Below, piece by piece: positions 2,597 to 57,895 of a stretch of 64,000 nucleotides of DNA. The notes beneath the pieces are model-generated. The model ran no database searches, was not told the origin of the DNA, and worked only from the letters and a program-made list of their open reading frames with translations. Numbering within the stretch: position 1 is the first letter of the stretch; each line of letters begins with the position of its first letter. Source of the DNA: a virus. Made by a program: the position numbers and the translations under genes. The stretch is from IMG/VR virus record IMGVR_UViG_3300029760_000001. One strand, written 5' to 3'.

Positions 2597-4666
2597 ATGT
2601 TTAGAGATTTTGTAAAGGCAATCCAGAAAAATTTACAGCAGATGTCTAAAGATTCTTCAAGATTATTCACAGTAAATGTGGACACCGAGGAGCTTTATAA
2701 TTTATATCTGGATTCGTTTCCGGCAGGTACAAATGAAATTTACAGAGAAAGAAGAGAATATGACTGTAGTTGTTGTAGACATTTTATCAGAGACGTTGGT
2801 AACGTCGTATCTATTAAAAATGGTGAGTTACATACCATTTGGGGAATTAATCCAGTATCAGATGATAAATATAATGTAGTCGCAGCTGCGCTTGATGCCT
2901 ATGTAAAACAGAAAGCGGTATTAGGGGTATTCCTCAAAAAAGAGAAACGAATTGGTACTCCTGAAAATAGAGAAATGCTCCCGACAGGAAAAATTAATAA
3001 ATACGAGCATTTCTTCGTAGATCTGCCAGAAATTTGTATCTTTAAGGAATGTTATGGACATACACTTGAAGGTGATTTAAGTCAATTCAGAGATGTCCGT
3101 AATGTATTTAAACGTTCTCTTGATGAAATTAGTAAAGAAGCTGTAGATACTGTACTTGAACTGATTGCTCAAAATTCTTTATATAAAGGTGCCGAATGGA
3201 AAAAGCAACTTACTGAATTTAAGAATTATCAGAAAGAATATGGAAAGCTTACGGATGAACAGAAAGAACTTTGGATCTGGGAAAAGTCAATTGCTGCAGG
3301 TGCCGTTATTGGCAAGATTCGCAACCATAGCATAGGAACATTGCTGGTGAATATTTCCGAAGGAATGGATCTTGACCTTGCCGTTAGAAAGTATGAGCAG
3401 ATTGTAGCCCCTGTAAATTATAAACGTCCAAAGGCAATCTTTACAAAGAAGATGCTTGAAGATGCAAAGAAGACTATTACAGAACTTGGTTATATGGATT
3501 CATTACAGAGAAGATTTGCTACCTTGGATGATATCACAGTAAACAATATACTTTTCTCCAATAAAGACGCAGCAAAGAGAATTACCGGTGCTATGGATTT
3601 GTTTGATGAAATGGAACAGGATGTTGCAATTGATCCAAAACGATTCTCTAAGGTAGAGGAAATAAGTGCAGAAGATTTCATTAAGAATGTTCTGCCTGTA
3701 GCGAAAGAATTGGAAGTATATTTGGAGAATAAACATATTCAGAATATGGTATCTCTGATTGCTCCAGAAGTTGCTGCCGCGAAAACAATGTTCAAATGGA
3801 ACAATGGAATGTCTTGGGCATATACCGGTAATATTACAGATTCAGATATCAAAGAGAATGTAAAAGCTGCTGGTGGTTCAGTCACAGGTATTGTAAGATT
3901 CTCCATTCAATGGAATGACAAAGATGGAAAGGATAATTCTGACCTTGACGCACATTGTATTGAACCAAAAGGTGGAGATCATATTTATTTTGGTTGTGTA
4001 AAATCACGACGTACTAGAGGAGAATTGGATATAGACATTACTAATCCAATCGAACAGTGCAGAAATAGTAATGGAGTTGCTGTTGAAAATATTACATTTC
4101 CATCTAAAGAACACATGATTCCTGGTACATATAAGTTTTTTGTAAATCAGTTCGCATACAGAGGATCTCAGGGATTTAAAGCTGAAATTGAAGTAAATGG
4201 AGAAATTCATTCTTACGAATACAATACTCCAGTACGTGGAAATGTAGATGTTGCAGAAGTAATCCTTGATCAGTCAGGAAATTTCAAAGTAGTGGACAAA
4301 CTTCCAGGAAATTGTGCAACAATCAGTAAAGATGTCTGGGGAATTAAAACTTTGCAGTTTACACCGGTATCAGTTGTATGTTACTCACCAAATTACTGGG
4401 ACGAACAGAAGGGAATTGGTCATCAGCACTTATTCTTTATGCTGAAGGATTGCATCAATCCAGAAGAACCAAATGGATATTACAATGAATTTTTGAAACC
4501 GGAACTTGAGCAGCACCGAAGAGTATTTGAAGCGCTTGGAGCAAAAGCACATGTAAAAGATGTTGATGATCAGCTTTCAGGAGTAGGATTTTCACTTACA
4601 AAGAGAAATGATCTGATTATTAAAGTAAAAGGCGCTACAGAGCGAGTATTAAAAGTAAAATTTTAA
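2597..4666 (+). CDS. large hypothetical protein (689 aa), unknown function
   Basis: Good RBS (AAGGAGAT N6 ATG) and a long uninterrupted ORF. I recognise no motif. The C-terminal half contains FSIQWNDKDGKDNSDLDAHCIEP...GELDIDITNP. Confidence 0.55.
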   Translation: MFRDFVKAIQKNLQQMSKDSSRLFTVNVDTEELYNLYLDSFPAGTNEIYRERREYDCSCCRHFIRDVGNVVSIKNGELHTIWGINPVSDDKYNVVAAALDAYVKQKAVLGVFLKKEKRIGTPENREMLPTGKINKYEHFFVDLPEICIFKECYGHTLEGDLSQFRDVRNVFKRSLDEISKEAVDTVLELIAQNSLYKGAEWKKQLTEFKNYQKEYGKLTDEQKELWIWEKSIAAGAVIGKIRNHSIGTLLVNISEGMDLDLAVRKYEQIVAPVNYKRPKAIFTKKMLEDAKKTITELGYMDSLQRRFATLDDITVNNILFSNKDAAKRITGAMDLFDEMEQDVAIDPKRFSKVEEISAEDFIKNVLPVAKELEVYLENKHIQNMVSLIAPEVAAAKTMFKWNNGMSWAYTGNITDSDIKENVKAAGGSVTGIVRFSIQWNDKDGKDNSDLDAHCIEPKGGDHIYFGCVKSRRTRGELDIDITNPIEQCRNSNGVAVENITFPSKEHMIPGTYKFFVNQFAYRGSQGFKAEIEVNGEIHSYEYNTPVRGNVDVAEVILDQSGNFKVVDKLPGNCATISKDVWGIKTLQFTPVSVVCYSPNYWDEQKGIGHQHLFFMLKDCINPEEPNGYYNEFLKPELEQHRRVFEALGAKAHVKDVDDQLSGVGFSLTKRNDLIIKVKGATERVLKVKF

Positions 4667-4706
4667 TATAATTAAATTAAACAAATAGAAAGAGAGGAAT
4701 AAAAAC

Positions 4707-5087
4707 ATGGAACTTACAAATATTTTTGAGGCGGCAACAAGATATAAATACAGATTCCCGTTCAAAGGAATGATTTCAGTAGAGGATTTATGGGACCTGA
4801 AATTACAGGATCTGGATTCAGTATTTAAACTGCTGAATAAAGAGAAAAAACAGAGTGATGAAGAAAGTCTGTTACAGGTTAAATCTGAAGCAGACCAGGA
4901 GCTGGAAAATAAAATTCAGATTGTAAAGTTTATCGTACAGGTGAAACAGGCAGAAACTGCAGAGAGACTAGCTGCAAAAGATAAGAAAGAGCGCAATCAG
5001 AAGATTATGAGAATCATTGAAAGAAAGCAGAACGAAGCTCTGGAAGGCAAGAGTCTTGAAGAACTGACAGCCATGTTAGAGGAGTAA
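4707..5087 (+). CDS. hypothetical protein (charged, coiled-coil-like)
   Basis: 126 aa ORF with an AGAGAGGAAT RBS and the conserved AATTAAATTAAAC box just upstream. Confidence 0.45.
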   Translation: MELTNIFEAATRYKYRFPFKGMISVEDLWDLKLQDLDSVFKLLNKEKKQSDEESLLQVKSEADQELENKIQIVKFIVQVKQAETAERLAAKDKKERNQKIMRIIERKQNEALEGKSLEELTAMLEE

Positions 5088-5090
5088 TAT

Positions 5091-5264
5091 ATGGGAATAC
5101 TTGGAAATATTGCAGGGTTTCTGTTTATGGTGATTGTGATATTGATTTTACTACTAATTTTGTGTTTTATATGTGCTGCGGTGTTAGCTGTAATTGTAGA
5201 GGCTATATACGAGGAAACCGGAAAATTAGAAGCTTTGTATAATATTTTACGCAATCTTCTTTAA
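5091..5264 (+). CDS. small hydrophobic membrane peptide (57 aa)
   Basis: ATG follows a GGAG; the product MGILGNIAGFLFMVIVILILLLILCFICAAVLAVIV... is one predicted TM helix. It is absent from the ORF track only because it is shorter than 60 aa. Confidence 0.35.
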   Translation: MGILGNIAGFLFMVIVILILLLILCFICAAVLAVIVEAIYEETGKLEALYNILRNLL

Positions 5265-5274
5265 GGGAAATAAA

Positions 5275-6021
5275 ATGAAAACATTTACAAAAAGAATTCT
5301 TTTACTTGCTTCGATACTCCTTATTTGGAGTATCGCTGCAAGACACGTAAATCCCTTGTTCGTTCCGGAACCAGTTACGGTATTTGATGATCTGATAGGC
5401 ATGATACGTACAGGACAGTTGATTAAGGCAATTGAATATTCGTTTCTAAGAATAACTGCTGCTACATTTATATCTGGAGCAATAGCATTTCCTATAGCGA
5501 TTCTGGTTTATAATTCCAGAATTGCTAAGGATATTCTTAATCCGATAATCAGTGTTATGCGATATATTCCGGTGACTGCATTTTATCCATTGCTTATTAT
5601 GTGGTTCGGGATAGATGAAATGATGAAAATTGTATTTTTGTTTATCGCAACATTCGTATATATGATGCCGTCAGTTGTATTATGCCTGGAGGAAGTAAAC
5701 AACGATCTAATAGATACCGGACTTACAATTGGAATGAGCAAATTACAAACGATATGGAGAATTCAGATTCCGGCATCATTGCCAGGAGTATTAAATAGCT
5801 ACATTATGATGTATGGAATTGGATTTACATATATTGCAGTAGCTGAAACAATAAATGCTCAATATGGACTTGGATATATAATCCAGCAATCATCTTCCAG
5901 AGGAAGAACAGATTTAGTATTTATGGCAATCATTGTGATTATGATCATCAGTGTTATATTTGATTATGTATCTAAATGGTTAGTAAGGAAAATTTTTAAG
6001 TGGAGGTATATAAATGATTGA
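5275..6021 (+). CDS. ABC transporter permease, SsuC/TauC/NrtB family (BPD_transp_1)
   Basis: Six hydrophobic segments with an EAA-like loop region ([22 protein letters not shown]). The overall pattern is typical of sulfonate/nitrate/taurine-type permeases. Confidence 0.7.
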
Positions 6022-6625
6022 AATTCATAATTTATACACAGGATACAGTAGAGATAAACCACTTTTATCTGGGTTTAATTATAATTTTGATAATAAGATC
6101 TACGGGATCCTTGGAGAATCTGGATGCGGCAAGACAACTTTGTTAAGGACGGTTGCAGGATTAATCAAACCGTTATCTGGAGAAATTATCATAGATAATA
6201 ATCCGGTTACAAAAGCAAGTAAAAATGAAGTATATATGATGCATCAGAACTATACTTCTTTTGATTGGTTAAATTGTCTTGACAATATACTAATTGCTAA
6301 AAAAGTTAAAGGCCATGTAGAACCAGAAGATATAGAAGCAGCTAAGAAGATGCTTTATTTAGTTGGTCTGAATGGAAACGAAAATAAATATCCTAAGCAG
6401 CTATCTGGAGGTATGAAACAACGGCTTGCGTTAGCCAGGACGTTATTTGCAAAACCAAAGATTCTTTTAATGGATGAACCATTGTCAGCACTGGATGCTG
6501 AGACACGAAGTAATATGCAATTGTTAATTATGGATTTGCATAGGTTACTTGATAATACTGTAATCATGGTCACACACAGTGAATCAGAAGCAAAGATAAT
6601 GTGTGATGAAATATTGAAATTTTAG
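6014..6625 (+). CDS. ABC transporter ATP-binding protein (short, SsuB/TauB-like)
   Basis: Walker [10 protein letters not shown], signature [13 protein letters not shown], Walker [13 protein letters not shown] and H-loop VTHS are all present. The start overlaps the permease stop. Confidence 0.75.
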
Positions 6626-6637
6626 GAAGGACATACA

Positions 6638-7171
6638 ATGGGAATTTTAAAAAACTTATTTGTGGAAGAAGTACCGGATGAGACACCTGATATTCCAGAT
6701 ATAGATACTGATTTTGATACAACCGAGACTAACGCAGAGCTTGATTCAGTCAATACTGACACTTTGATTGATGATATTTACAGCCAGAATAATCTGGCAG
6801 ATAAAACACAGTCAATTTTTAAAGTGGAAGAGTTAATAAAATCATTTCCAAAGGAAATGACGACAGAAACAAAAAGAAATTCAGTATTGGCAACACTTGG
6901 TGTATTTGGCTTGACAGTGACTGATGTTGAGGCAGACGGAGAAAAAAGAGTTGATGTTTTAAGCGACATTCTCTCAAAGATTATTTGTGATTCTGAAACT
7001 GTTGTTACTGAAAAAGAAAATGCCATTGAAGAACACAAAATGGAAATCGAGCGCCTGGAAAAGGAAATTGCTGATCAGAGGGCTGAAACAAAAACATCTG
7101 ATGAAACTATTACTACTGAAATTGATAGAATCAAAAATTTAATTAACTTTACTATTGGAGGAAATGCATAA
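6638..7171 (+). CDS. hypothetical acidic protein
   Basis: 177 aa, D/E-rich N-terminus and coiled-coil C-terminus. It sits inside the ABC cassette. Confidence 0.4.
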   Translation: MGILKNLFVEEVPDETPDIPDIDTDFDTTETNAELDSVNTDTLIDDIYSQNNLADKTQSIFKVEELIKSFPKEMTTETKRNSVLATLGVFGLTVTDVEADGEKRVDVLSDILSKIICDSETVVTEKENAIEEHKMEIERLEKEIADQRAETKTSDETITTEIDRIKNLINFTIGGNA

Positions 7172-7908
7172 TGGAACTTGGTAAACTAATTTTTATTGTT
7201 GCAGTGGTTGTTATTGTATTGATACTGATCCTGTTTCCGGAAGCAAGAAAATTACTGTCTGGATTTACTAGATTATTTATCAAAGATATGGCAACCACAC
7301 CAGAAGGAGCAGAGGCTATCTACGAAGAAAAAATTGACCAGGCTCAGGAATCTTATAATAAAGCGGATAATGCATATAAGATTGCTGCTGGAAAATTAAG
7401 CAATGCACAGAAAGATCTCGATAGGAAAAGAAAAAGACTTATTAATGTTGAAGCAGAGTGTGAATCTCTGGTTAAAACTAATCAGATCGAGCTTGCACAG
7501 TTAAAGGCAGAGGAAAGAGAAGAGATTCTTTCAGATATTCGCAGAGTTACTGGATTGGTAAATGCTTATAAAGAAGCTACAGACGCAGCAAAAGAGACGC
7601 AGGAAAGATGTGAAAAGAATCTGAGAAGTCTGAAGCGTGAGAGCAAAGAAGTTGTGGAGAATATGAAAGTAAAGAAGCAGCTTCAGGAAGTCTATGATGA
7701 TATGGATGAATTGAAAAATGTCACGGCAACAGATAAATTGCTTGATTCTGTTCGAGATAAAAACAGAGATCTGGATGCTATTGTGGAAGGATCTAAAGTA
7801 GTACACAATAATAAGATGTCTACCAAACTTGAAAAGGCTGAAGCGGAAGCAAAAAAGAATAACAGCAATGATTATCTGAACAGCTTGAAAAAGAAATATA
7901 ATAAATAA
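7171..7908 (+). CDS. hypothetical membrane-anchored coiled-coil protein
   Basis: N-terminal TM helix (LIFIVAVVVIVLILILF) followed by a long charged helical region. Confidence 0.4.
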   Translation: MELGKLIFIVAVVVIVLILILFPEARKLLSGFTRLFIKDMATTPEGAEAIYEEKIDQAQESYNKADNAYKIAAGKLSNAQKDLDRKRKRLINVEAECESLVKTNQIELAQLKAEEREEILSDIRRVTGLVNAYKEATDAAKETQERCEKNLRSLKRESKEVVENMKVKKQLQEVYDDMDELKNVTATDKLLDSVRDKNRDLDAIVEGSKVVHNNKMSTKLEKAEAEAKKNNSNDYLNSLKKKYNK

Positions 7909-7919
7909 GGAGTAGTAAA

Positions 7920-9518
7920 ATGAAGAAAGCAAAAAGATTTAGATTAACTAAAGCAGCAAAAATTCTGATTATGGTTCTGATTGTAGCTTTAATTGGTGGA
8001 GGTATTTTTGCAGGAGTACAAACCGGAGTAATTCAGACGAAGAAAGATAAAAAGGAATCAATCGTAGCAAAGACAGATGATACCGATACAAATAAAGAAA
8101 ACAGTGCGAACAAAGATAATAAAACTGCAGATGATGATACAACCATCAATTTATCATTAGATGAATGGATCGGTTGGAAATCCATTATTGACGCTAATGG
8201 CGGCTTAACAACTCAGTCAGGTTCCATCTATGATAAACTTGGCGTAAAAGTAAATATTAATGTTATTAACGACGCAACACAATCAAGTAATGCTCTGATT
8301 AAAGGAGATCTGAACGCTGCAGGTTATACAATCAACAGAACTGCATTCTTATCTAAGAAATTCACTGATGCCGGAAAAGAAGTGGTGATGCCGTATATTA
8401 CAAATTACTCAAATGGTGGTGACGGTATTATTGCGAAGTCTTCTATTCAGAATGTAAATGATCTTGTAAATGCTAAAATTGGTGTACCAGAATTCTCTGA
8501 AGCTCAAACACTTGTAGTATGGTTTGTAAATAATTCTGATCTTTCTAATAAAGCCAAAGCAAAGATTATTGATAATCTTGTATTGTTCTCAACACCAGAT
8601 GATGCAGCAAAAGCATTTTTTGCCGGTCAGATTGATGTTGCAGCAACCTGGGAACCATACCTGACTCAGGCAAAGAATATGACAGACGCACATGTATTAT
8701 TTAGCACTGCAAGTTCTTCAAATCTTGTTATGGATGGAATTCTGTTTGATAAGAAATTTGCAGAAGCACATGCAGATGTAGTAGAGAAATTTATCCAGGG
8801 ATCTCTGGAAGCTGCAGATATGTATAATACAGAATTTAATGCAATCCGTGAAGTAATGCCTATGTTTAACACTGCATCAGATGAAGATATTGTAGCAAAT
8901 ACGGAGTCTGCAAAACTGACAACATGGAAAGATAATTTAGATCTATTAAATGGAACTGCAAAGACAATTTATTCAGATATGTGTAACGTATGGACATCAA
9001 TTGGTGAGTCTGTAAATGCTGATCTTGTTAATAGTATTTTTGATGATACATATATTAATGCTATTTCAGATAAATTTAGTGCAACGGAAGTGTCTAATAC
9101 AAATACTGTAAAGGTTACAGAGGATAATAAAAAGGAAATTCAGGATACTGAAGCTTTATTACAGGGTAAAGCATCTGTTACATTTATTCAGAATACGGCA
9201 AAATTCTCTGATTCTGCTGCAGCATCTAAAGAACTTAATAAGTTTATTGACATTGCAAAGGTGCTTGACGGTGCAATCATTGAAATTGCAGGAAATACAG
9301 ACCCTAATCCGGAATCAGATCCTGAAGACGAGTATAATCAGAAGTTGTCCTTACAAAGAGCAGAAGCTGTTAAAAACTATTTTGTTATGAATGGAATTTC
9401 TAACGGACGTATTGTAGTAGTTGGAAATGGATCCAGCAATCCTGTTGTTGATAATGATACTGATGAACATCGCGCAATGAATAGACGTACTGATGTATCA
9501 TTTAAGATCATTGAGTAA
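7920..9518 (+). CDS. Membrane-anchored NMT1/SsuA-like substrate-binding domain fused to a C-terminal OmpA-like peptidoglycan-binding domain
   Basis: N-terminal TM helix. The middle region (KVNINVINDATQSS...GYTINRTAF...KIGVPEFSEAQTLVVW...IDVAATWEPYLTQA) resembles SsuA/NMT1-type SBPs. The C-terminus (LSLQRAEAVKNYF...NRRTDVSF) matches the OmpA_C motif. Confidence 0.55.
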   Translation: MKKAKRFRLTKAAKILIMVLIVALIGGGIFAGVQTGVIQTKKDKKESIVAKTDDTDTNKENSANKDNKTADDDTTINLSLDEWIGWKSIIDANGGLTTQSGSIYDKLGVKVNINVINDATQSSNALIKGDLNAAGYTINRTAFLSKKFTDAGKEVVMPYITNYSNGGDGIIAKSSIQNVNDLVNAKIGVPEFSEAQTLVVWFVNNSDLSNKAKAKIIDNLVLFSTPDDAAKAFFAGQIDVAATWEPYLTQAKNMTDAHVLFSTASSSNLVMDGILFDKKFAEAHADVVEKFIQGSLEAADMYNTEFNAIREVMPMFNTASDEDIVANTESAKLTTWKDNLDLLNGTAKTIYSDMCNVWTSIGESVNADLVNSIFDDTYINAISDKFSATEVSNTNTVKVTEDNKKEIQDTEALLQGKASVTFIQNTAKFSDSAAASKELNKFIDIAKVLDGAIIEIAGNTDPNPESDPEDEYNQKLSLQRAEAVKNYFVMNGISNGRIVVVGNGSSNPVVDNDTDEHRAMNRRTDVSFKIIE

Positions 9519-9631
9519 GGAGTAATTATGGTTGCTTTAAATATAGAAACATTTGTTGTATGCCTTGTCATTGCTTTTCTGGCAGGCGTGGTGGTAAAAA
9601 CTATTATATCGAGAAAATAAAGGTGTGCAAT

Positions 9632-10015
9632 ATGTTGATAAGAAAAGAAATTATTCCAATAGATGAGGTATATTCAGCAGTAAAAGATGTATTGTTCGAA
9701 CCAAATAGAAAGAAATCCTTTGTTAATATTCGTGGGGATTTAATTAAAGGAAATAGTCAGCGATTTCAGACGTTTTTTACAAAAGGATTGAAATGCGTCT
9801 CTTGTGGAATAGAAGGCAAATATTTCGCAAAGGAAAAAACAAAGGGAGATAAGAGATATCATTTAAATCTATATGCTATAGATGGTAATGGAAAAGAGGT
9901 ATTAATGACAAAAGATCATATTTTTCCTCATAATAAAGGCGGAAAGAATAATATCTCTAATTATCAAACTATGTGTGTGAAATGCAATGTAGCAAAAGGA
10001 AGTAGGATATTATAG
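9632..10015 (+). CDS. HNH endonuclease (free-standing)
   Basis: HIFPHNKGGKNNISNYQTMCVKCNVAKG is an HNH core with the zinc-ligand cysteine pairs CVSCG and CVKCN. ATG 9632 has an AAAGGTG RBS; the track ORF 9560 start is probably over-extended. Confidence 0.6.
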   Translation: MLIRKEIIPIDEVYSAVKDVLFEPNRKKSFVNIRGDLIKGNSQRFQTFFTKGLKCVSCGIEGKYFAKEKTKGDKRYHLNLYAIDGNGKEVLMTKDHIFPHNKGGKNNISNYQTMCVKCNVAKGSRIL

Positions 10016-10583: not shown

Positions 10584-10680
10584 AAATACATAGTCAAGGA
10601 TGACAACAGCACAGTGGAGTGAAAGCTCCCTGTGCTAAATAAAAAGAAGAAAGAAATTTAATTATACAAACAATGAATGT

Positions 10681-10765: not shown

Positions 10766-10844
10766 TTTGGCAAGTATTTTATAAAAATATACTCCAGCCG
10801 AATTGCAGAGAAATATAATTTAATTATACAAAAAGGAGATAAAA

Positions 10845-11963
10845 ATGAGTAAAATTATTAGTACAGGTTCCACTTTTAGAATCTACGGAGATGATCTTGT
10901 AACACATAATCAACTTCCGGCACAAATTTATTCTATCAGATGTTCAAAGATGACAGGATTTTATTTAGAGAAACATGCTGATATTGAGATCAATGAAGAT
11001 AAAATATACGGTGTGCACATGGAAAAAGTAAATAAAGTATTAAATGCTTTTCCAAATTTCAATAAAAATCTTGGCGTGATCTTATCTGGAGCCAAAGGAA
11101 TTGGCAAATCTTTATTTTCTAAGATTCTTGCTGTAGAAGCTGTAAAAAAAGGATTGCCAGTAATTATTGTTGATACATATATCCCTGGAATTGCTAATTT
11201 TATTGAAGAAATTGAACAGGAAGTATTAGTAATGTTTGATGAGTTTGATAAAACATTTGGTAATATTAAAGCTGCTGATGGTATGGCTAATCCGCAAACA
11301 GAGTTGCTTACATTATTTGATGGATTAGCTCAAGGGAAAAAGTTATATGTTATTACTTGTAATAATCTTAATACTCTGAGTGATTATTTGGTAAATAGAC
11401 CTGGAAGATTTCATTATCATTTTAGATTTGATTATCCGACAGATTCTGAAATCACAGAATATATGAGAGACAAGTTACATAAAGAGTATTATGGAGAAAT
11501 TAGTAAGGTAATTGCATTTTCTAAAAGAGTCAGCTTGAATTATGATTGTTTAAGAGCTATCGCATTTGAGCTTAATACAGGATTACAATTTCAAGAGGCA
11601 ATTAAAGATATGAATATCCTTCATATAAATAATACCGTTTATATAGCTACTTTGTATACTAAAGATGGGAAAAAAGATACAGAAGAAAAAACTCTTGACT
11701 TGTTTGATAAGACTTCTAATCATAGTTTATATTTTACAATAGATGGAAAATGGTTCTATACAAAATTTTCTGGTGTTGATGTAAGATATGATTTTGACAG
11801 ACACATTGATTTTGTTGATGGAAAAGATGTTGAAATTATTCCGGATGAAGACTATGCGGATCTTACAAAAGAAGAAAAGAAAAAATACGAAAATATTAAA
11901 ATTGATCGTATCGTTTTTGCAAGAAAAGAAGAAAAGGGACTTCATTATAATCTTGCTGCATAA
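10845..11963 (+). CDS. AAA-family ATPase
   Basis: Walker A GVILSGAKGIGKS and Walker B VLVMFDEFDK are present. The gene lies inside the tRNA cluster. Confidence 0.6.
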   Translation: MSKIISTGSTFRIYGDDLVTHNQLPAQIYSIRCSKMTGFYLEKHADIEINEDKIYGVHMEKVNKVLNAFPNFNKNLGVILSGAKGIGKSLFSKILAVEAVKKGLPVIIVDTYIPGIANFIEEIEQEVLVMFDEFDKTFGNIKAADGMANPQTELLTLFDGLAQGKKLYVITCNNLNTLSDYLVNRPGRFHYHFRFDYPTDSEITEYMRDKLHKEYYGEISKVIAFSKRVSLNYDCLRAIAFELNTGLQFQEAIKDMNILHINNTVYIATLYTKDGKKDTEEKTLDLFDKTSNHSLYFTIDGKWFYTKFSGVDVRYDFDRHIDFVDGKDVEIIPDEDYADLTKEEKKKYENIKIDRIVFARKEEKGLHYNLAA

Positions 11964-12130
11964 AAATTAAATTAAACATTCCGATAAATAAAAACTTTAA
12001 ATATGCAGAAGTTCGGTTATAAGCATATGTCTTTCATTTTACTTTTTACCTCTTATAACTCGTTTGAAGCAGGTCTTACGAGTATAAATAAACTGTATAA
12101 GGGTAAGCCGGTAGTAACCTTATACAACAA

Positions 12131-12210
12131 GCGGATATGGCGGAATTGGCAGACGTAGAAGGCTCAAACCCTTCGGAGAAATCGTGTGGGTTCGAATCCC
12201 ACTATCCGTA
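12131..12210 (+). tRNA. tRNA-Leu (anticodon CAA)
   Basis: Acceptor GCGGATA/TATCCGT (G1:U72 wobble); anticodon stem GAAGG/CCTTC with loop CTCAAAC; T-arm identical to the 10681 tRNA; 11-nt variable region; discriminator A. Confidence 0.6.
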
Positions 12211-12720: not shown

Positions 12721-12925
12721 TTTCTCCTGACGAAGGAGTGACTTTTATAGGCTGTAGAGTTCCAATAAGAAACAAGCCGTTTCTAGTTAGGGCGTGAAAC
12801 TGGTGTTTTTTTGAGATGTTTTATAAGTAAAAATATCCAGCTTTAGAGAAAATGTAGTGAATTGAGCTGATCAAAGAACACATAATCCTGTTAGGACTGC
12901 AGCACGACAGGTCATGCATGAAAAG

Positions 12926-12998
12926 TGATAAGTAGCTCAGTTGGGAGAAAGAGCGCACTACAAAAGTGAGGTCGGTGGTTCGAGTCCACTCTTATCAC
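12926..12998 (+). tRNA. tRNA-like gene with aberrant anticodon arm (possibly degenerate or non-canonical)
   Basis: Good acceptor (TGATAAG/CTTATCA) and T-arm (GGTGG-TTCGAGT-CCACT). The D-loop is 12 nt, and the anticodon region CACT-ACAAA-AGTG forms only a 4-bp stem with a 5-nt loop. Confidence 0.35.
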
Positions 12999-13075
12999 AT
13001 TTGTAATGATGACGCGCGGATCGTTACAAAAGAAAATAGTAACTACTGAAATGTATATTTAAGGAGGCAGTAAAC

Positions 13076-13447: not shown

Positions 13448-13582
13448 AATTTAATTATACAGGCACGTATAAATGAGAAATAGGAAATAATATTTGAAGC
13501 ACTATCTTAAAAGATCAGTGCATAGATGTCAGTGTGACAATAAACTGCAAGGTTATTCCACTTCGGAAAGCGAGGTGAAATA

Positions 13583-15974: not shown

Positions 15975-16020
15975 CTATAAATAATTAAATTATACAAAGT
16001 ACAGAAAGGAAACAAATACT

Positions 16021-25017: not shown

Positions 25018-27315
25018 ATGAGTAAAAAAGAAGTGAAATTTAATTGTAAAATCGTAAAGCGTATGTATAATTCAGAGAATTACAAGATTTATGCTACATA
25101 CGTAGATAAAAAAGAGTTTCCTAATATTAAGCATAATAAATATGATAACGTCACTATTTATGGAGACGTACATAATTTGGTAGTTTCACAGTCGTATGAA
25201 GTTACGGCTGTGGAGCAGCTTGATAATAAGTATGGATATGGATACGATATTGTAAATATACGGATGGATAAACCCAAGAATGAGGAAGAAGTCTATATGT
25301 TCTTAAGAGAAATTTTAACTGAGAACCAGGCAGGAGTACTTTGGCAGCATTATCCGGATATTATTGATATTATTTTAAGAGGAGAAGCAGATACCGTTGA
25401 TTTGGATAAATTAAAAGGTATTGGCGAAAAAACGTTTGAAACTATTAAGACAAAAATAATTGAGAATTATTGTATCTATGACTTAGTAGTTGAATTTGGT
25501 GGAATTCTTACAATGTCTATGCTGAAAAAACTATACGATGAATTTAAATCAATTCCCAAAATGAAACAGGAATTGAGAAAACGACCATATAAATCATTAA
25601 CCAAAATATCTGGGGTAGGTTTTATTAAGGCAGATAGTATTCTTTTAGAATTGCAGCGATTGGGTAAAATTGATTTTCCTTTTGAATTAAAATCATCCGC
25701 TCAAAGATGTGCTGCTTGTATGGAGTATTATTTGGAGGAGAATCAAAAAGAAGGAAATACTAAAATGGATCTGCGCGATCTCAGAAAACAGGTTGTAAGA
25801 CTTGTTCCTGCTTGTTCATCACATTATGTTGAATGTTTAAAGGATCCAGATATTTATTATAACAAAGATACTTTTGAAGTAGCATTAAAAATCACACATG
25901 ATACTGAATGTCAAATAGCAGCTTCATTATTCGTAGCAAACTTAAAACCTAAAATATGGGATTTTGATTGGAAAAGTTACCAGACAGCAGGAGAATATCA
26001 TTTAACTGACGAACAAACCAGTGCATTGGAATGTATATGTAACAATAATATTATGATATTAAATGGCTTTGCAGGATCTGGTAAAAGTGCTACTTCTGCA
26101 ATGATCATCAAAATGCTAGAGGATAATAGTATCTCATATACCTTGATGGCTCCAACAGGACGCGCTGCAAAAGTATTGAGTGATTATACTGGCAGGCCAG
26201 CGGCTACAATTCATCGTGGATTAGGATATATGCCAAAGAATAGATGGGGATATAATAGCGAATACCAATTACCATTTGATGTTGTTCTTGTAGATGAATT
26301 TTCAATGACAGATATATTCCTGTTCTTACATTTATGTGAAGCAATTGATTTTAGTAGAACAAAACTTATTGTTGTAGGAGATTCCGCACAGCTTCCATCC
26401 GTTGGGCCAGGAAATTTGCTTTATGATATGATTAATTCATTTGTTATACCTACAATAACTTTAAATCAGATTTTTAGATACGCTGAAGGCGGATTGATGA
26501 AAGTCGCTACGGATGTTAGAAATATGAAACCATATTTATACGATTTGAATAATGGTATAGCAAAATTTGGGAACGATTATACATTCATTAATGCAAATAA
26601 TGAACAATCAATAAAATGTGCAATTAGTTTGTACCAAAAACTTCTTACCAAATATTCTTCCGAAGACATTCTTGTTTTATCTGCTTTTAATAAAGGAGAT
26701 TGTGGCACTATTGTAATTAATAATTCGATTCAAAAAATTGCAAATCCAAATTATGGGTCAGAAAAATGTATCAAATCTGGAGACACGACATATTATGTTA
26801 GAGATATAGTTATTCAGATAAAAAACAATTATGAAGCAGAAGTAGATATGGGTGATATGAAGATAGAAAATGCTAATCCTAGAGAATATTCTGTTGATAC
26901 AACATTTATTCCTAATGGTATGTTAGGAAAGATCGTTGATATTTATGACGAAACTATCCCATATACAAACGAACATAAAACTGGTGCGATTATTGATTTT
27001 GACGGTGTTAGAGTAAAATATGAAAAATCAGAAATGTCAATGTTATTATTGGGATATGCAATTTCTATTCATAAAAGCCAGGGAGGAAGTGCTAAAGTGA
27101 CAATTACACTTACGCCATCTTGTCATGCATACATGATGAATTCTAATTTATTATATGTGGCATTGACACGTACAAAAGAAAAAAGTTTTCATATTGGCGA
27201 TAAAGATACTGTAAACAGAGCAACTAAAAAGAAGGAGAACTTTAAGAGGAACACTTTCTTATTAGATGTATTAAAGAAAATAAAAATTAAATTAAACAAA
27301 AAGGAGAACAAATGA
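25018..27315 (+). CDS. RecD-like SF1 DNA helicase
   Basis: Walker A GFAGSGKSATSAM, Walker B VLVDEFSMTD, and C-terminal ISIHKSQGGSAKVTI...LYVALTRTKEK (UvrD_C_2). Confidence 0.8.
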   Translation: MSKKEVKFNCKIVKRMYNSENYKIYATYVDKKEFPNIKHNKYDNVTIYGDVHNLVVSQSYEVTAVEQLDNKYGYGYDIVNIRMDKPKNEEEVYMFLREILTENQAGVLWQHYPDIIDIILRGEADTVDLDKLKGIGEKTFETIKTKIIENYCIYDLVVEFGGILTMSMLKKLYDEFKSIPKMKQELRKRPYKSLTKISGVGFIKADSILLELQRLGKIDFPFELKSSAQRCAACMEYYLEENQKEGNTKMDLRDLRKQVVRLVPACSSHYVECLKDPDIYYNKDTFEVALKITHDTECQIAASLFVANLKPKIWDFDWKSYQTAGEYHLTDEQTSALECICNNNIMILNGFAGSGKSATSAMIIKMLEDNSISYTLMAPTGRAAKVLSDYTGRPAATIHRGLGYMPKNRWGYNSEYQLPFDVVLVDEFSMTDIFLFLHLCEAIDFSRTKLIVVGDSAQLPSVGPGNLLYDMINSFVIPTITLNQIFRYAEGGLMKVATDVRNMKPYLYDLNNGIAKFGNDYTFINANNEQSIKCAISLYQKLLTKYSSEDILVLSAFNKGDCGTIVINNSIQKIANPNYGSEKCIKSGDTTYYVRDIVIQIKNNYEAEVDMGDMKIENANPREYSVDTTFIPNGMLGKIVDIYDETIPYTNEHKTGAIIDFDGVRVKYEKSEMSMLLLGYAISIHKSQGGSAKVTITLTPSCHAYMMNSNLLYVALTRTKEKSFHIGDKDTVNRATKKKENFKRNTFLLDVLKKIKIKLNKKENK

Positions 27316-31955: not shown

Positions 31956-32023
31956 TAAGCTATTATAGCTTTGATATAAAAATTTAATTAAACAAAACAC
32001 AGAGAAAAAGGAGAACTAAAAAC

Positions 32024-33004: not shown

Positions 33005-33059
33005 TAATTTAATTATACGGTATGCGTAAGAACACGCATACCGTAGTAAGGAGAATTAT

Positions 33060-36700: not shown

Positions 36701-37217
36701 TGTACAGAATGATTTTGTAACCGGTTCACTTGGTACGCCGGAAGCTCAAGCTATTATTCCGAATGTAAAAAAGAAATTTGATGAATATAAGAATAATAAG
36801 AACTATGTAATTCTTACAAAGGATACTCATCATTCAGATTACGCAGATACTTCAGAGGGCAGAAAACTTCCTGAACATTGTATGTATGGTACTAAAGGTT
36901 GGGAAATTGTTGATGAACTTGATTATAAAAATCTCGATAGTTTTATGGTATGTTGTAAATCTACTTTTGGATTTGATGACTGGGATTGGGAAGAAACATT
37001 TGATATCGTATATGATTCTTCTTTATTAGATATTGAAATTATTGGCATATGCACAGATATCTGTGTTATTACGAACGCTCTTTTGATTAAAACTTATTAT
37101 CCAGAGGCAAAAATCACAGTTGATGCATCATGCTGCGCAGGATCAACACCGGAAAAGCATAAAGCGGCTCTTGATGTAATGGAAAGCTGCCAGATTAATG
37201 TAATCAATAGAAATTAA
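36663..37217 (+). CDS. pncA: Isochorismatase-family cysteine hydrolase, nicotinamidase (PncA)-like
   Basis: VLIVIDVQNDF (Asp), the K in ILTKDTHH, and the GICTDICV catalytic Cys form the nicotinamidase triad pattern. Confidence 0.65.
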   Translation: MEKEKKKVLIVIDVQNDFVTGSLGTPEAQAIIPNVKKKFDEYKNNKNYVILTKDTHHSDYADTSEGRKLPEHCMYGTKGWEIVDELDYKNLDSFMVCCKSTFGFDDWDWEETFDIVYDSSLLDIEIIGICTDICVITNALLIKTYYPEAKITVDASCCAGSTPEKHKAALDVMESCQINVINRN

Positions 37218-37225
37218 ATTAAACA

Positions 37226-50959: not shown

Positions 50960-50996
50960 GGGAGCTATATCGAAATGATATAACTCCCTTATTTTT
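50960..50996. terminator. Bidirectional rho-independent terminator between xis (+) and int (-)
   Basis: GGGAGCTATATC-gaaatg-GATATAACTCCC stem (one mismatch) followed by TTATTTTT. Confidence 0.55.
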
Positions 50997-52188
50997 AATC
51001 AAGTAAATTTATGACTTCTGATTTATGTTTATTCATGATATGCATATATATGTTATAAGTTGTGGAAACATCTTCATGTCCGAGTATCTCTGATATCACC
51101 TTAATATCTACAGGCTGGTTCTGTTCCCATCCTTTCTGCAGCAGCATGGACCCAAATGAATGTCTGAGATCATGTAAGCCGAAGCCATTAGATTCAATAT
51201 CAGCTCTCTTGAGGATCGCTTTAAGCGTCCTAGTAAGAGTTGACTGTGATGGTGGAATATTATTTTCAGTTACGAATATGTGATCATCTCCGGATGCTTT
51301 TAAGCCAGGAGAGACAGTTTTAAGCCAGAGCAGCTGTTCCTTTGCACGATTTGCCAGAGGAATGACTCTGATTGACTTAGGACGCTTTGGTGTATCTATG
51401 AGCCACTGATATTTGCCATCTACTTTGATACGCTCCATTGTCTTATCTATGTTAATGGTATTATTCTTAAAATCTATATCTTTCCATGTGAGAGCATAAG
51501 CTTCTCCTATACGCATGCCAGTATAAAGAACTAACAGACAGAACCTGGCATTACGTCCATAGATGTAATCACCTGTCCTTACGCCGGGCAAAGCAGAATC
51601 TGCTTTCATAAGAGCCGTCTTATAAAACTTCTCAGCTTCTTCTAAAGATAAGAAAGAATGTTCTTTCTTCTGTACTGCATATTTTGACTTATGCGGCATC
51701 TTAATCCCTTTTGCAGGATTCTCTGTGATAATATTACAGGATACAAGATAGTCGAAAACAATATTGAAAAGAGTGCGTGTCTTTTTAACAGTGCTCTCAG
51801 AATATTTCTTCGACATATTTGTATAGTATGTTTGAATGACAATCTTGTCTATAGCAGCCATCTGGACATCAGCAATCGGATTAGTTTTAATATAGCAGCG
51901 ATTTGTAGACTGAAGAGTAGCATAGTTGTTCGTCTTGAAGGTTGGCTCCAATGTCTGCAGGATATTATCTATGCATTCCCCAAGAGTCATCTTACGATAA
52001 TCTTTTTGGTTAACCCTCATACTCTTAGCTTCAAATTCTTGTATCTTGCGTCTTACATCAGCTTTTGTCCTTCCTACAAATTCTTTCCGGCTTGTCATAC
52101 CATCATATTTCTTACGGTACCTATAGTATGTAATGTCATTCTTTGTTACAGTATCCCATGATCCTGAACCTTTTTCCCTTCTTGCCAT
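50995..52188 (-). CDS. int: Tyrosine-type site-specific integrase (phage integrase family, N-terminal arm-binding domain)
   Basis: C-terminal catalytic HDLRHSFGSMLL...Y; N-terminal MARREKGSGSW arm-binding motif. ATG 52188 has a GGAGGG RBS, so the track start at 52257 is over-extended. Confidence 0.85.
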   Translation of the reverse strand: MARREKGSGSWDTVTKNDITYYRYRKKYDGMTSRKEFVGRTKADVRRKIQEFEAKSMRVNQKDYRKMTLGECIDNILQTLEPTFKTNNYATLQSTNRCYIKTNPIADVQMAAIDKIVIQTYYTNMSKKYSESTVKKTRTLFNIVFDYLVSCNIITENPAKGIKMPHKSKYAVQKKEHSFLSLEEAEKFYKTALMKADSALPGVRTGDYIYGRNARFCLLVLYTGMRIGEAYALTWKDIDFKNNTINIDKTMERIKVDGKYQWLIDTPKRPKSIRVIPLANRAKEQLLWLKTVSPGLKASGDDHIFVTENNIPPSQSTLTRTLKAILKRADIESNGFGLHDLRHSFGSMLLQKGWEQNQPVDIKVISEILGHEDVSTTYNIYMHIMNKHKSEVINLLD

Positions 52189-52299
52189 ATACATCCCTCC
52201 GTTGTGTAAATTTACACTAATTTTACTTACAAAATAAAAAACTTTACTTTTTTCCAAAATTATGATAATATGAATTATGTGTTAAGTAAATTATAGCAT

Positions 52300-52530: not shown

Positions 52531-52602
52531 GCGCCTGTAGCTCAGTGGATAGAGCAGTGGTTTCCGGTACCATGTGCGGGGGTTCGATTCCCTTCAGGCG
52601 TG
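52531..52602 (+). tRNA. tRNA-Arg (anticodon CCG), likely the integration target
   Basis: Acceptor GCGCCTG/CAGGCGT (G1:U72); D-arm GCTC-AGTGGATA-GAGC; anticodon stem GTGGT/ACCAT with loop TTCCGGT; T-arm GGGGG-TTCGATT-CCCTT; no encoded CCA. Confidence 0.7.
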
Positions 52603-52725
52603 CTGCCTGGGACGTATGTACAGTTCCGGTGCGTTGTATCACAGGAGTTATCAGAATCGGGAACTGTCAGAAATCGTATGCGGCAGTGAACGGAGCAAAC
52701 GGTAACTCATAAGGAGGACAAGAAC

Positions 52726-55167: not shown

Positions 55168-56139
55168 ATGTACAAAAAATTATATAATAGAACAATGGAC
55201 GAAAAAATCAGAATAAACAAATATTTAAGCGAGGCAGGCATATGCTCCAGACGGGAAGCCGACCGGATGATCGAAGAGGGAAGGATTACGGTAAACGGAA
55301 AAAAAGCAGAAAGCGGTCAGAAAGTCAGCCTGGAAGATGAGGTCTGTGCAGACAATATACCTGTCCATAAAAATGAAAAAAAAGTACTGCTTCTTTTTAA
55401 CAAACCCAGAGGGATCGTGTGCAGTACAAAGCAGCAGTTTGATGAGACAACGGTAACAGATTATCTGGATTATCCTCTGCGTGTTTATCCTGTGGGCAGA
55501 CTGGATAAAGAATCACAGGGCCTTCTCCTTCTGACAAATGAAGGAGATCTGGTCAATAAGATCATGCGCGCCGGAAACTATCATGAGAAAGAATATTTTG
55601 TGACAGTGAATAAGCCGGTGGACAGGGAATTTGTCCGAAGGATGAGCAAGGGAGTCCCTGTTCTTGATACAGTGACCAGACCATGCAGAGTGGTGCAGAC
55701 AGGAGAATGCAGCTTTCGGATCATTCTGACACAGGGACTGAACCGGCAGATCCGCAGAATGTGCCGGTATCTGGGATATGAGGTACAGAAGCTGAAAAGG
55801 ATCAGGATCATGAATCTGACTCTGGACGGGATCAGAGAAGGCGAATACAGAGAGATCACAGCACAGGAATGGGAAGAACTGAACCATTTACTGGAATCTT
55901 CCACAAGTGAAACAGTGATCAGAACAGGAGAACAGAATGGAAACAGCAGCGATCATGCGAATGAAAGAGCTGGTGCAAAAGCTGGACAGGGCAGCAAAGG
56001 CGTATTACCAGCAGGATACAGAGATCATAAGCAACAGAGAGTACGATCAGATGTACGACGAGCTTCAGGCTCTGGAGAAAGAGACAGGCACTGTTCTGGC
56101 AAACAGCCCAACCATAAGCGTAGGGTACGAGGCAGTTGA
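55168..56139 (+). CDS. rluF: Pseudouridine synthase RluF/RsuA family (S4 domain + catalytic domain). The ORF as read runs ~200 nt into ligA in another frame
   Basis: S4 motif INKYLSEAGICSRREADRMIEEGRITVNG and catalytic VGRLDKESQGLLLLTNEGDL. The recognisable domain ends near 55920; the low-complexity R/G-rich tail beyond that is probably a read-through artefact. Confidence 0.6.
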   Translation: MYKKLYNRTMDEKIRINKYLSEAGICSRREADRMIEEGRITVNGKKAESGQKVSLEDEVCADNIPVHKNEKKVLLLFNKPRGIVCSTKQQFDETTVTDYLDYPLRVYPVGRLDKESQGLLLLTNEGDLVNKIMRAGNYHEKEYFVTVNKPVDREFVRRMSKGVPVLDTVTRPCRVVQTGECSFRIILTQGLNRQIRRMCRYLGYEVQKLKRIRIMNLTLDGIREGEYREITAQEWEELNHLLESSTSETVIRTGEQNGNSSDHANERAGAKAGQGSKGVLPAGYRDHKQQRVRSDVRRASGSGERDRHCSGKQPNHKRRVRGS

Positions 56140-57895
56140 CCAGCTTCCAAAAGAAGAACACGAATCCCCCATGCTGTCTCTGGACAAGACTAAGGACAGA
56201 GAAGTTCTGAGGGAATTTATCGGGGAACACAAAACGCTTCTGTCATGGAAGCTGGACGGACTGACGATCGTTCTTACCTACGAGAATGGAGGACTTGCCA
56301 AAGCAGTTACACGTGGAAACGGTGTGACAGGAGAGGTTGTCACCAATAATGCCAGAGTATTTAAGAACGTTCCTCTTAAAATCCCGTATCAGGGAAGACT
56401 GGTGTTACGCGGGGAAGCGATCATTACCTATTCAGACTTTGAACGGATCAATGAATCCATAGAAGACGTTGATGCGAAATACAAGAATCCGAGAAACTTA
56501 TGCAGCGGTTCTGTCCGCCAGTTAAACAATGAGATCACAGCCCGCAGGAATGTGCGTTTCTACGCATTTACGCTGGTAAGCGCCGACGGGGTTGATTTCC
56601 ATAATTCAAGAGCCCGGCAGTTTGAATGGCTGAAAGAACAGGGATTTGATGTAGTGGAATACAGGACAGTCACAGCTTCAACGCTGGATGAAGCCATGGA
56701 ATATTTTTCAACTGCGATCACTGAGAATGATTTTCCGTCGGACGGACTGGTTGCTCTTTATGATGATATTGCATACGGAGATTCCCTTGGAAGAACGGCG
56801 AAATTTCCCAGAAATGCTTTTGCATTCAAATGGGCAGATGAGATCAGAGAAACCCATCTTCTGGAGATCGAATGGAGCCCGTCAAGAACAGGGCTGATCA
56901 ATCCGGTGGCTGTTTTTGAACCGGTTGAGCTGGAGGGAACCACTGTGAGCCGCGCCAGCGTACACAATGTGAGCATTCTAAAAGAATTGCAGCTTGGTAT
57001 CGGGGATACGATCACTGTATATAAAGCAAATATGATCATTCCGCAGATTGCAGAAAACCTCACACGCAGCAGTAAACTGGAAATTCCGGATACCTGCCCT
57101 GCATGTGGCCATGGAACACAGATACAGAAGGTAAATGATGTGGAGGCACTTTACTGTACAAATCCTGACTGTGCCGCAAAGAAGATCAAATCCTTTGCAC
57201 TTTTTGCAAGCAGGGATGCCATGAACATTGACGGACTGTCAGAAGCAACACTGGAGAAATTCATTGCAAGAGGCTTTATTCATGATTTCGGAGATATTTT
57301 TGAGATTGGAAAGCATCGTGATGAGATTGTGGAGATGGACGGATTCGGGGAGAAATCCTTTGAGAACCTGATGACCAGCCTTGATAAAGCTAAGGAGACT
57401 ACTCTTGCGAAGGTGATCTACAGCCTTGGAATCGCCAATATCGGTCTTGCCAATGCAAAAGTGATCTGCAGGCATTTTGATGATGATCTGGAGAAGATCC
57501 GTCATGCAGATAAAGAGGAAATCAGCTCTATTGATACCATCGGACCGGTAATTGCCGGAAGTCTGACTGATTATTTTTCAAACGAGGATAATAACAGAAA
57601 ACTGGATCATCTGATGAGCCATCTGACTGTTAAGAAAGAAGAAAAGACAGGTGAGCAGATTTTCCGGAACATGAATTTCGTTATCACAGGAAGTGTGGAG
57701 CACTTTGCAAACAGAGCACAGGCAAAGGAATTTATTGAGTCTCTGGGAGGCAAGGTGACCGGATCAGTAACATCGAAGACGAACTACCTGATCAATAATG
57801 ACACAACTTCCAATTCTTCAAAGAATAAAAAAGCCAAAGAACTGGGAATTCCGATCCTTTCTGAAGAAGATTTCCTGAAGATGGCACAACAATAA
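55937..57895 (+). CDS. ligA: NAD-dependent DNA ligase LigA (host, intact)
   Basis: 652 aa: Ia domain, adenylation domain, OB fold, CPACGHG...CTNPDC zinc finger, HhH and C-terminal BRCT. AGGAGA RBS. Confidence 0.9.
   Translation: METAAIMRMKELVQKLDRAAKAYYQQDTEIISNREYDQMYDELQALEKETGTVLANSPTISVGYEAVDQLPKEEHESPMLSLDKTKDREVLREFIGEHKTLLSWKLDGLTIVLTYENGGLAKAVTRGNGVTGEVVTNNARVFKNVPLKIPYQGRLVLRGEAIITYSDFERINESIEDVDAKYKNPRNLCSGSVRQLNNEITARRNVRFYAFTLVSADGVDFHNSRARQFEWLKEQGFDVVEYRTVTASTLDEAMEYFSTAITENDFPSDGLVALYDDIAYGDSLGRTAKFPRNAFAFKWADEIRETHLLEIEWSPSRTGLINPVAVFEPVELEGTTVSRASVHNVSILKELQLGIGDTITVYKANMIIPQIAENLTRSSKLEIPDTCPACGHGTQIQKVNDVEALYCTNPDCAAKKIKSFALFASRDAMNIDGLSEATLEKFIARGFIHDFGDIFEIGKHRDEIVEMDGFGEKSFENLMTSLDKAKETTLAKVIYSLGIANIGLANAKVICRHFDDDLEKIRHADKEEISSIDTIGPVIAGSLTDYFSNEDNNRKLDHLMSHLTVKKEEKTGEQIFRNMNFVITGSVEHFANRAQAKEFIESLGGKVTGSVTSKTNYLINNDTTSNSSKNKKAKELGIPILSEEDFLKMAQQ

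Follow-up and report, generated by a model that had tools for sequence, protein, structure and literature searches.

The stretch of viral DNA analysed here, 64,000 nucleotides (nt) of the IMG/VR record IMGVR_UViG_3300029760_000001 (hereafter, the window), covers the right-hand part of a large prophage integrated in a gut Firmicute, and it carries at positions 5,275 to 9,518 a cassette of five genes. In order, these encode the permease and the ATPase of an ATP-binding cassette (ABC) importer, an acidic protein, a membrane-anchored protein resembling PspA/IM30, and a substrate-binding protein (SBP) fused to an OmpA-like domain (SBP-OmpA). The cassette is a new, phage-borne variant of an operon class that has been described computationally in bacteria, and its defining feature is the PspA-like partner. 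We tentatively propose that the five proteins form a conserved envelope module of large Firmicute phages, in which membrane maintenance or remodelling would be coupled to solute uptake as part of the lytic programme, rather than a device for nutrient scavenging.

Conservation of the five-gene module

The five open reading frames (ORFs; 5275-6021, 6014-6625, 6638-7171, 7171-7908 and 7920-9518) all lie on the plus strand, exactly where an earlier note on this DNA, made from the sequence alone, had placed them. There is an overlap of 8 nt between the permease and ATPase frames and one of 1 nt between the third frame and the fourth; the remaining gaps inside the cassette measure 11-12 nt, and the spacing on either side of it is 10 and 41 nt. 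Such tight packing and start/stop overlaps fit co-translation from a single transcript, and the overlaps suggest that the genes are translationally coupled.

A scan of IMG/VR for relatives of the SBP-OmpA protein matched 185 viral contigs, and gene order was assessed in the best 80. All five genes occur in the same order in 68 of these 80 loci, the other 12 being mostly loci at contig ends or with a divergent acidic gene. Contigs that bear the module reach 216 kb, many of them measuring 100-186 kb. Bacillus phage G (NC_023719) encodes orthologues in the same order, namely gp243 (permease, 48% identity), gp245 (ATPase, 48%), gp246 (acidic protein, 32%), gp247 (PspA-like protein, 41%) and the SBP-OmpA proteins gp249 and gp250 (48% and 43%). 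Across these best viral loci and phage G, the importer core is thus co-encoded with the PspA-like and acidic proteins as a fixed linkage. Phage G differs from the window in that SBP-OmpA is present as a tandem pair of paralogues and that two further small genes (gp244 and gp248) occur; it is, moreover, a 498-kb Bacillus phage with no integrase context. In its record the genes are annotated as 'ABC-like transporter permease', 'ABC transporter' or 'OmpA/MotB domain', or stand as unnamed gene products, and a literature search found no published analysis of the phage G cassette. Relatives of the fusion protein occur in 18 of 50,697 phage records, and the earlier note's remark that complete ABC importers are rare in phages therefore holds for isolates.

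The same module was found in metagenome contigs and in genomes, among them those of Acetatifactor muris, Faecalimonas, Lacrimispora amygdalina, Hominicoprocola, Dysosmobacter and other Oscillospiraceae. In the Lachnospiraceae and Oscillospiraceae genomes it sits in prophage-like regions, and there, as in the metagenome contigs, its neighbours are always of phage type, for example integrase, NAMPT, phosphoribosyl pyrophosphate (PRPP) synthetase, primase-helicase, DnaE, methylases and enzymes of RNA repair. Conservation of the module extends to proteins that have diverged by about 50%, and selection on each of the five genes is purifying. Comparisons with relatives of 57-86% protein identity, in which synonymous divergence (dS) was saturated and nonsynonymous divergence (dN) low, gave dN/dS ratios of 0.05-0.32 across the five genes in the ten comparisons that could be computed, dS being too saturated in the other five.

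Some loci depart from the five-gene order. Two of them, L002 (1469-5528) and L016 (110-4121), have no ATPase gene between the permease and acidic genes but are otherwise intact; either an ATPase may act there in trans, or transport may be dispensable. The acidic gene is missing from L017. Three further contigs (L073, L076 and L104) have lost 5' parts of the cassette and keep the SBP-OmpA gene together with all or part of the PspA-like gene.

More distant phages have a related arrangement. In the Prevotella phages Lak-B1 (L030, 5299-12667) and Lak-A1 (L031), a 527-residue fusion of NMT1 and OmpA domains, a permease and a 329-residue ABC ATPase are clustered, along with three small paralogous proteins of 146-165 residues; the records are unannotated. 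Just upstream of this importer cluster lie an acidic/coiled-coil protein and a transmembrane (TM)/coiled-coil protein, similar in architecture to the acidic and PspA-like proteins of the window, although homology to these was not demonstrable.

Predicted proteins of the module

The partner that sets this cassette apart is a 245-residue protein encoded on the plus strand at 7171..7908. As judged from profile comparisons, there is moderate support for regarding it as a divergent PspA/IM30-like protein, of the ESCRT-III (endosomal sorting complex required for transport III) superfamily, with a TM anchor in the place of helix alpha0. A very hydrophobic TM segment at residues 3-21 is followed by positive charges and then by a coiled coil; because the positive charges follow the TM segment, the coiled-coil body is predicted to be cytoplasmic. 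Residues 36-242 align with positions 13-217 of the 220 positions of the PspA_IM30 profile (PF04012) at E=1.4e-4. Of 11 diverse orthologues with identities as low as 23%, each compared separately with Pfam, 10 matched this family at E<=0.01 (best E=3.9e-12), and other families matched three orthologues or fewer each. In an hhalign comparison, the family profile aligned with that of E. coli PspA plus Synechocystis Vipp1 at E=2e-4 (probability 46%), colinearly over positions 29-211 versus 7-188, setting the conserved motif FIxDxxxTPEGAxAIY opposite 'KAEDPEK', the start of PspA helix 1. The AlphaFold2 model is a helical hairpin whose top Foldseek matches are Vipp1 and PspA, although these are not significant on their own.

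The protein may thus be akin to PspA, Vipp1 (IM30) and LiaH, with which its full-length colinear, if weak, PspA_IM30 match, its predicted long helical hairpin and its size would agree. It differs from them in that the TM segment replaces the N-terminal amphipathic helix alpha0 of PspA/IM30, in the weakness of the similarity, and in having no PspBCF or LiaIFSR partners.

The preceding gene (6638..7171, plus strand) encodes a cytoplasmic protein of 177 residues with no TM segment and a marked excess of acidic residues (42 D+E versus 18 K+R), 12 of which fall within the first 40 positions. Its acidic N-terminus is disordered; a small helical core with conserved residues (DTLIxDIYxQN...SIFKxEE...PxEM) follows, and the C-terminal part is a long helix. 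No family was matched in Pfam, NCBIfam, PHROGs or PADLOC and no profile match was found in PDB. The AlphaFold2 model, all-helical with a predicted local distance difference test (pLDDT) score of 64, had no fold match in Foldseek, and hhalign gave no profile link to the PspA-like family. With 245 homologues found, the protein represents, on sequence comparison, an orphan family seen only in this cassette. The earlier note had described the third and fourth products as two coiled-coil/acidic proteins. Both are indeed present, but it had missed that one is TM-anchored and PspA/IM30-like and that both are fixed members of the module, found also in phage G.

The transporter itself was recognised correctly. 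The permease (248 residues; 5275..6021, plus strand) is a type I ABC importer permease of the NitT/TauT family, TauC/SsuC-like, matching BPD_transp_1 (PF00528) at E=5e-23 and 82 bits against a cut-off of 26.4. A hydropathy scan gives it five TM-like hydrophobic segments, and an EAA coupling loop lies at residues 139-166. Its best NCBIfam matches are TauC (5e-32), SaoP (1e-30) and SsuC (4e-23), all below the respective cut-offs. The ATPase (203 residues; 6014..6625, plus strand) consists of the nucleotide-binding domain only, without a C-terminal regulatory domain, and matches ABC_tran (PF00005) at E=2e-29. It is the minimal ATPase of the earlier note, with all six motifs present: Walker A (GESGCGKT34), Q78, LSGG130, Walker B with the catalytic Glu (ILLMDE150), the D-loop (SALD158) and the H-loop (H188). 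Together with the binding protein, these two make up what, by homology, is a complete gene set for a NitT/TauT-type ABC importer, as had been claimed.

The importer had also been called SsuABC/TauABC-like. This stands at the level of the NitT/TauT family, whereas orthology does not: the importer is not an SsuABC or TauABC orthologue by sequence score, because all of its components fall far below the NCBIfam equivalog cut-offs. The permease scores 111 against 342 for TauC and 82 against 347 for SsuC, the ATPase 151 against 357 for TauB and 140 against 395 for SsuB, and the binding domain 65 against 163.5 for SsuA_fam and 33 against 304 for TauA. No sulfonate or taurine enzyme is linked to it, and none of the desulfonation enzymes TauD and SsuD/E was found among the scanned neighbours of the cassette, in the related loci or in the precomputed annotations of the related contigs. 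The system shares with E. coli TauABC and SsuABC the permease fold, the EAA loop, the ATPase motifs and a homologous binding domain; unlike these, it has an ATPase without the C-terminal domain, a binding protein with a TM anchor and an OmpA domain, and no TauD or SsuDE partner.

The last gene (7920..9518, plus strand) encodes a bitopic protein of 532 residues in which the membrane-anchored fusion of a binding protein to an OmpA domain, described in the earlier note, is readily found. Seven K/R residues precede a TM anchor of N-in orientation at residues 15-33 (nt 7962-8018), which is connected by a low-complexity linker (residues 34-75) to a TauA/SsuA/NMT1-type binding domain at about residues 76-385 (nt 8145-9074), and after a second linker comes an OmpA/MotB-like peptidoglycan-binding domain at about residues 416-532 (nt 9165-9515). 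The binding domain matches SsuA_fam (TIGR01728) at E=5e-18 over residues 94-341 and NMT1_2 at E=7e-5. It counts as a homologue of the type II periplasmic binding proteins because a profile of the SBP portion by itself matches the solved structures of E. coli TauA (6ssy, 1.2e-10), SsuA (2x26, 4.7e-8) and Xanthomonas SsuA (3e4r, 6.7e-8), and the type II assignment made in the earlier note is in this way borne out by homology.

The OmpA domain (PF00691) is matched at E=5e-17 and 62.5 bits against a cut-off of 27.2, and solved OmpA-like domains are matched at up to 1.2e-11. In Pal, OmpA and MotB domains, GxTD together with NxxLSxxRAxxV is the established peptidoglycan-contact motif. Both elements are kept here, as GNTD at 458 and NQKLSLQRAEAV at 473; phage G and L002 have another residue where GxTD has its Asp. 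Because the N-terminal helix anchors the protein and the C-terminal domain is of the OmpA/MotB type, SBP-OmpA is predicted to reach from the membrane across to the wall. When 1.84 billion cluster representatives were searched, 98 clusters (at 50% identity) of SBP-OmpA relatives matched at E<=1e-30, and a larger number of remoter full-length fusions had identities of 25-30%, so that the predicted wall-anchored binding proteins make up a sizeable family. Literature searches found no phage SBP-OmpA or PspA cassette and no experimentally studied SBP-OmpA fusion.

Bacterial relatives and possible function

Ravi et al. 2024 (mSystems, PMC11237479) described, computationally, bacterial operons that combine PspA/Snf7 proteins with ABC transporter genes and a 'PBPB+OmpA' protein. 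In their example from Candidatus Handelsmanbacteria (OGG56892.1) the order is PspA, PBPB+OmpA, permease, ABC ATPase, TM+Snf7 and AAA+, and they suggest a link of membrane remodelling to solute transport. That paper makes no mention of such operons in phages; the word 'prophage' is absent from its text, as are 'phage G' and 'Caudovir' from one supplementary text file. The phage module and these operons alike bring together an ABC ATPase, a permease, an OmpA-fused binding protein and a TM-anchored protein of the PspA/Snf7 superfamily, and in both the function, a link between membrane remodelling and transport, is inferred. They differ in that the described operons are bacterial and have a separate soluble PspA and a tandem (inactive plus active) AAA+ ATPase, both missing from the phage module, whereas the latter has the extra acidic orphan protein and a different gene order. 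The anchored protein of the phage module, moreover, scores as PspA/IM30 and not as Snf7.

A second set of relatives lies on chromosomes of Clostridia metagenome-assembled genomes (L018, 7960-15018; L019, 523-7657; L020, 5957-13057; also L022). There the order is SBP-OmpA, permease, ATPase, a TM/coiled-coil protein of 230-244 residues, a second SBP-OmpA and a protein combining SBP_bac_11 and VWA domains. TelA genes flank these loci, which adjoin pyruvate kinase, a gene of the DNA polymerase III alpha family and a ribosome hibernation factor. The permease, ATPase and SBP-OmpA belong to the same families as in the phage module (SBP-OmpA 44-48% identical), there are two SBP-OmpA copies as in phage G, and helical membrane-stress proteins are again associated. 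The loci differ in their cellular context, their longer ATPase (280-300 residues), the added VWA protein and the flanking TelA genes. We did not find this TelA/VWA context of the transporter family described in the literature. The TM/coiled-coil protein of 230-244 residues stands where the phage module has its PspA-like and acidic proteins; it was considered as a homologue of these, and no homology to either was detectable.

The following outline of how the module would work is a proposal. It would be expressed together with replication and early genes in lytic growth. The wall-stapled binding protein would capture a small solute, probably anionic or zwitterionic, in the wall zone and feed it to the permease. 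The anchored PspA-like protein would assemble beside the transporter on the cytoplasmic face and stabilise or remodel the host membrane, and the acidic protein may assist or regulate it, or may connect it to the ATPase as an adaptor. In sum, the host membrane would be kept energised and intact through a long infection cycle or, alternatively, an envelope made refractory to further insult.

PspA, Vipp1 and the ESCRT-III proteins are the universal machinery of membrane repair and remodelling, and a general question about it is how those bacterial members that have no AAA+ partner are controlled. In the module, a PspA-like protein with a membrane anchor is constantly linked, at the level of the genes, to a predicted wall-tethered ABC transporter. 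Phage G and Bacillus megaterium are a cultivable phage-host pair in which the proposed coupling is directly testable. If the proposal is true, membrane maintenance would join the host functions that large phages bring. The cassette also points to an unstudied family of peptidoglycan-anchored binding proteins, and if it should be an importer only, it would still be among the few complete ABC importers conserved in phages.

Several observations speak for the proposed coupling to the membrane. Transporters with OmpA-fused binding proteins are associated independently with PspA/Snf7 proteins in bacteria (PMC11237479), with PspA-like proteins in phages and with TelA/VWA proteins in Clostridia, from which it would follow that a transporter of this type works with a sub-membrane scaffold; in our analysis these independent associations are the main argument against a stand-alone nutrient pump. 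The decay variants support the same reading, in that the PspA-like and SBP-OmpA genes are kept where the ATPase or permease has been lost. A role in the lytic programme is suggested by the location of the cassette in the replication block with phage-like GC content, by a scan for a promoter or terminator of its own that gave nothing above the shuffled expectation, and by its presence in phage G and the Lak phages. This position, the outcome of the promoter and terminator scan and the presence in phage G also argue against a lysogenic-conversion moron role.

Other findings weigh against the proposal. The PspA-like protein of the window scores 22 bits, below the Pfam gathering score of 33.9 for PspA_IM30; the hhalign comparison with the single E. 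coli PspA sequence was not significant; and among PDB sequences, neither the protein nor the profiles of its family had a significant PspA or Vipp1 match, the family profile reaching solved Vipp1/PspA at E values of 0.25-3. The phage module lacks the AAA+ ATPase that the bacterial operons of Ravi et al. contain, the putative physical or functional link between the transporter and the PspA-like protein is drawn from gene linkage only, and the transporter has every feature of a working importer, with which a plain uptake role is compatible.

Such a plain auxiliary metabolic importer, brought by the phage for a limiting nutrient such as nitrate, an osmolyte, a sulfonate, taurine or a precursor of thiamine or pyridine, would use its OmpA domain merely to retain the SBP in the Gram-positive wall, the helical proteins being accessory or unrelated. 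The complete gene set with intact motifs, the strong conservation of a binding domain homologous to TauA/SsuA, the NAD-salvage and nucleotide-metabolism genes nearby in related phages and the classification of the ATPase's PHROG as 'moron, auxiliary metabolic gene' all agree with it. Yet the cassette has no linked enzyme for breaking down or using such a nutrient (SsuD, TauD or similar), and its scores come nowhere near the equivalog cut-offs. Both helical proteins are constant members in 68 of 80 viral loci and in phage G, two lineages without the ATPase keep the other four genes and others keep only the PspA-like and SBP-OmpA genes, and the same type of transporter pairs with PspA/Snf7 or TelA in bacteria; we think a plain importer of this kind rather unlikely. 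A moron derived from the host and now in decay, with no function for the phage, for which the earlier note had allowed, could draw on the few viral contigs with truncated versions, but it is contradicted by five intact ORFs in the window, by a dN that stays low while dS is saturated, by the gene order kept from phages of gut Clostridia to Bacillus phage G, and by a GC content and strand that match the phage. We regard it as extremely improbable.

A further alternative is a role in superinfection exclusion or envelope defence, to the benefit of the lysogen or of the infected cell. Here the wall-anchored complex and a PspA-like layer beneath the membrane would block the DNA of competing phages or confer tolerance of membrane-active toxins, much as has been proposed for TelA/Ter proteins of jumbo phages. 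That the window is an integrated prophage, and that TelA and VWA genes border the counterpart in bacteria, would suit such a role. Iyer et al. 2021 (PMC7824862) described TelA/Ter genes in jumbo phages and proposed that sub-membrane structures of the TelA/TerF type stop superinfecting phages from entering, and a 2026 paper (PMC12880540) reports that Jug gut phages transcribe a pspA-like gene adjoining terD. These too are large phages that encode scaffold proteins of a sub-membrane stress response, but their systems have no ABC transporter or OmpA-fused binding protein, and the cassette of the window has no TelA or TerD. PADLOC-DB 2.0 gave no specific defence-system match, only generic ATPase (mad3, AriA) and generic MotB (ZorB) similarity. 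Some 43 kb separate the cassette from the integrase; it sits in the replication block, with no promoter or terminator of its own detected, and it is shared with phage G and the Lak phages. Phage G is virulent, and neither it nor the Lak phages are known to be temperate. On balance we find a dedicated exclusion or defence role improbable. Among the roles that the earlier note had offered, namely envelope anchoring, exclusion and nutrient uptake, the constant linkage to a PspA-like protein shifts weight away from plain nutrient acquisition.

One may also speculate about a bolder form of the envelope module, which we consider distinctly unlikely, in which the transporter would be less a nutrient pump than the ATP-driven, wall-anchored organiser of a phage membrane-repair machine of the ESCRT-III type. 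According to this speculation, SBP-OmpA would hold the complex to the membrane at one end and to peptidoglycan at the other, and might respond to a ligand derived from the wall or to a separation of the two layers, and the ABC ATPase, through the acidic adaptor, would control assembly of the TM-anchored PspA-like polymer in place of a Vps4-like AAA+ protein. Large phages could in this manner keep the host membrane sealed and energised against pore-forming abortive-infection (Abi) effectors, premature holin lesions or superinfection while they replicate over a long cycle.

The prophage and neighbouring genes

The first 51 kb of the window have a GC content of about 0.34 and every gene up to the integrase lies on the plus strand, so the cassette is inside an AT-rich phage region, as the earlier note had it. 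The phage part has four tRNA genes, homing endonuclease genes and replication genes, the last encoding a DnaE-like polymerase, a RecD2-like helicase, a PD-(D/E)XK nuclease and an RNA ligase, and the cassette sits inside its co-directional block of replication and early genes. A tyrosine integrase gene on the minus strand (50995-52257) marks the prophage-host junction, and the tRNA-Arg(CCG) gene that adjoins it (52531-52603, ARAGORN) is the probable attachment site. Host genes with a GC content of 0.41-0.45 follow, including a cell-wall deacetylase with choline-binding repeats, LigA (55937-57895) and a homoserine O-succinyltransferase.

The motif AATT[T/A]AATTA[T/A]ACA is over-represented in the window (18 copies versus 3.7 expected). 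Nearly all copies are on the plus strand and at gene boundaries, often 1-30 nt 5' of a start codon, and the motif is probably a phage promoter or regulatory element. Copies lie at 2567-2580, 4670-4683, 10655-10668, 10817-10830, 11965-11978 and 13448-13461, and further ones at 15983-15996, 27285-27298, 31981-31994, 33006-33019 and 37212-37225. The closest copy upstream of the cassette, at 4670-4683 on the plus strand, possibly marks the start of the transcription unit that carries it; the closest downstream (10655-10668, plus strand) adjoins tRNA-Gln. The intergenic motif with which the cassette was said to be flanked is thus real, but these copies enclose a block of nine genes (about 4.67-10.66 kb) and not the cassette itself.

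Directly 5' of the permease, an ORF at 5091..5264 (plus strand) encodes a hydrophobic protein of 57 residues. It is probably co-transcribed with the cassette, and its membership of the module is doubtful; no relative of it was found near the cassette in loci L001-L031. Directly 3' of the cassette is an HNH_5 endonuclease gene (9560-10015), a likely mobile insertion because it is absent at that position in related loci. An AAA+ ATPase gene at 10845-11963 was considered as a Vps4-like partner and set aside, no relative of it being found within the retrieved sequence, at most 10 kb to either side, around the cassette in loci L001-L031.

The four phage tRNA genes called by ARAGORN form a cluster: Gln-UUG at 10680, Leu-CAA at 12131, Met-CAU at 12646 and Cys at 12925-12999, the last called with the anticodon ACA instead of the usual GCA. 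Near the start of the window, a NUMOD4+HNH_3 homing endonuclease gene (422-982) overlaps the start of an ORF of 295 residues (967-1854) whose only domain is BRCT; this ORF is possibly what remains, at the C-terminal end, of an NAD-dependent ligase of the phage into which the endonuclease has inserted.

In related phages (L003-L006, L012 and L014-L015), the flanks of the module carry full NAD-salvage sets (NAMPT or NAPRTase, nicotinamidase-like, NadD-like and NAD synthase genes) along with SIR2, GmrSD-like and Band_7 genes and, for RNA repair, RNA ligase, CCA-adding enzyme, RlaP and Tpt1 genes, and are rich in candidate counter-defence functions. Upstream of the cassette in the window lie genes for proteins of 689 residues (2597-4666, phrog_1735) and 126 residues (4707-5087, phrog_2018), the former with relatives in L004-L006 that are annotated as DUF8224. 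In the related phages L003-L006 this pair is found directly downstream of the cassette; it has moved across it.

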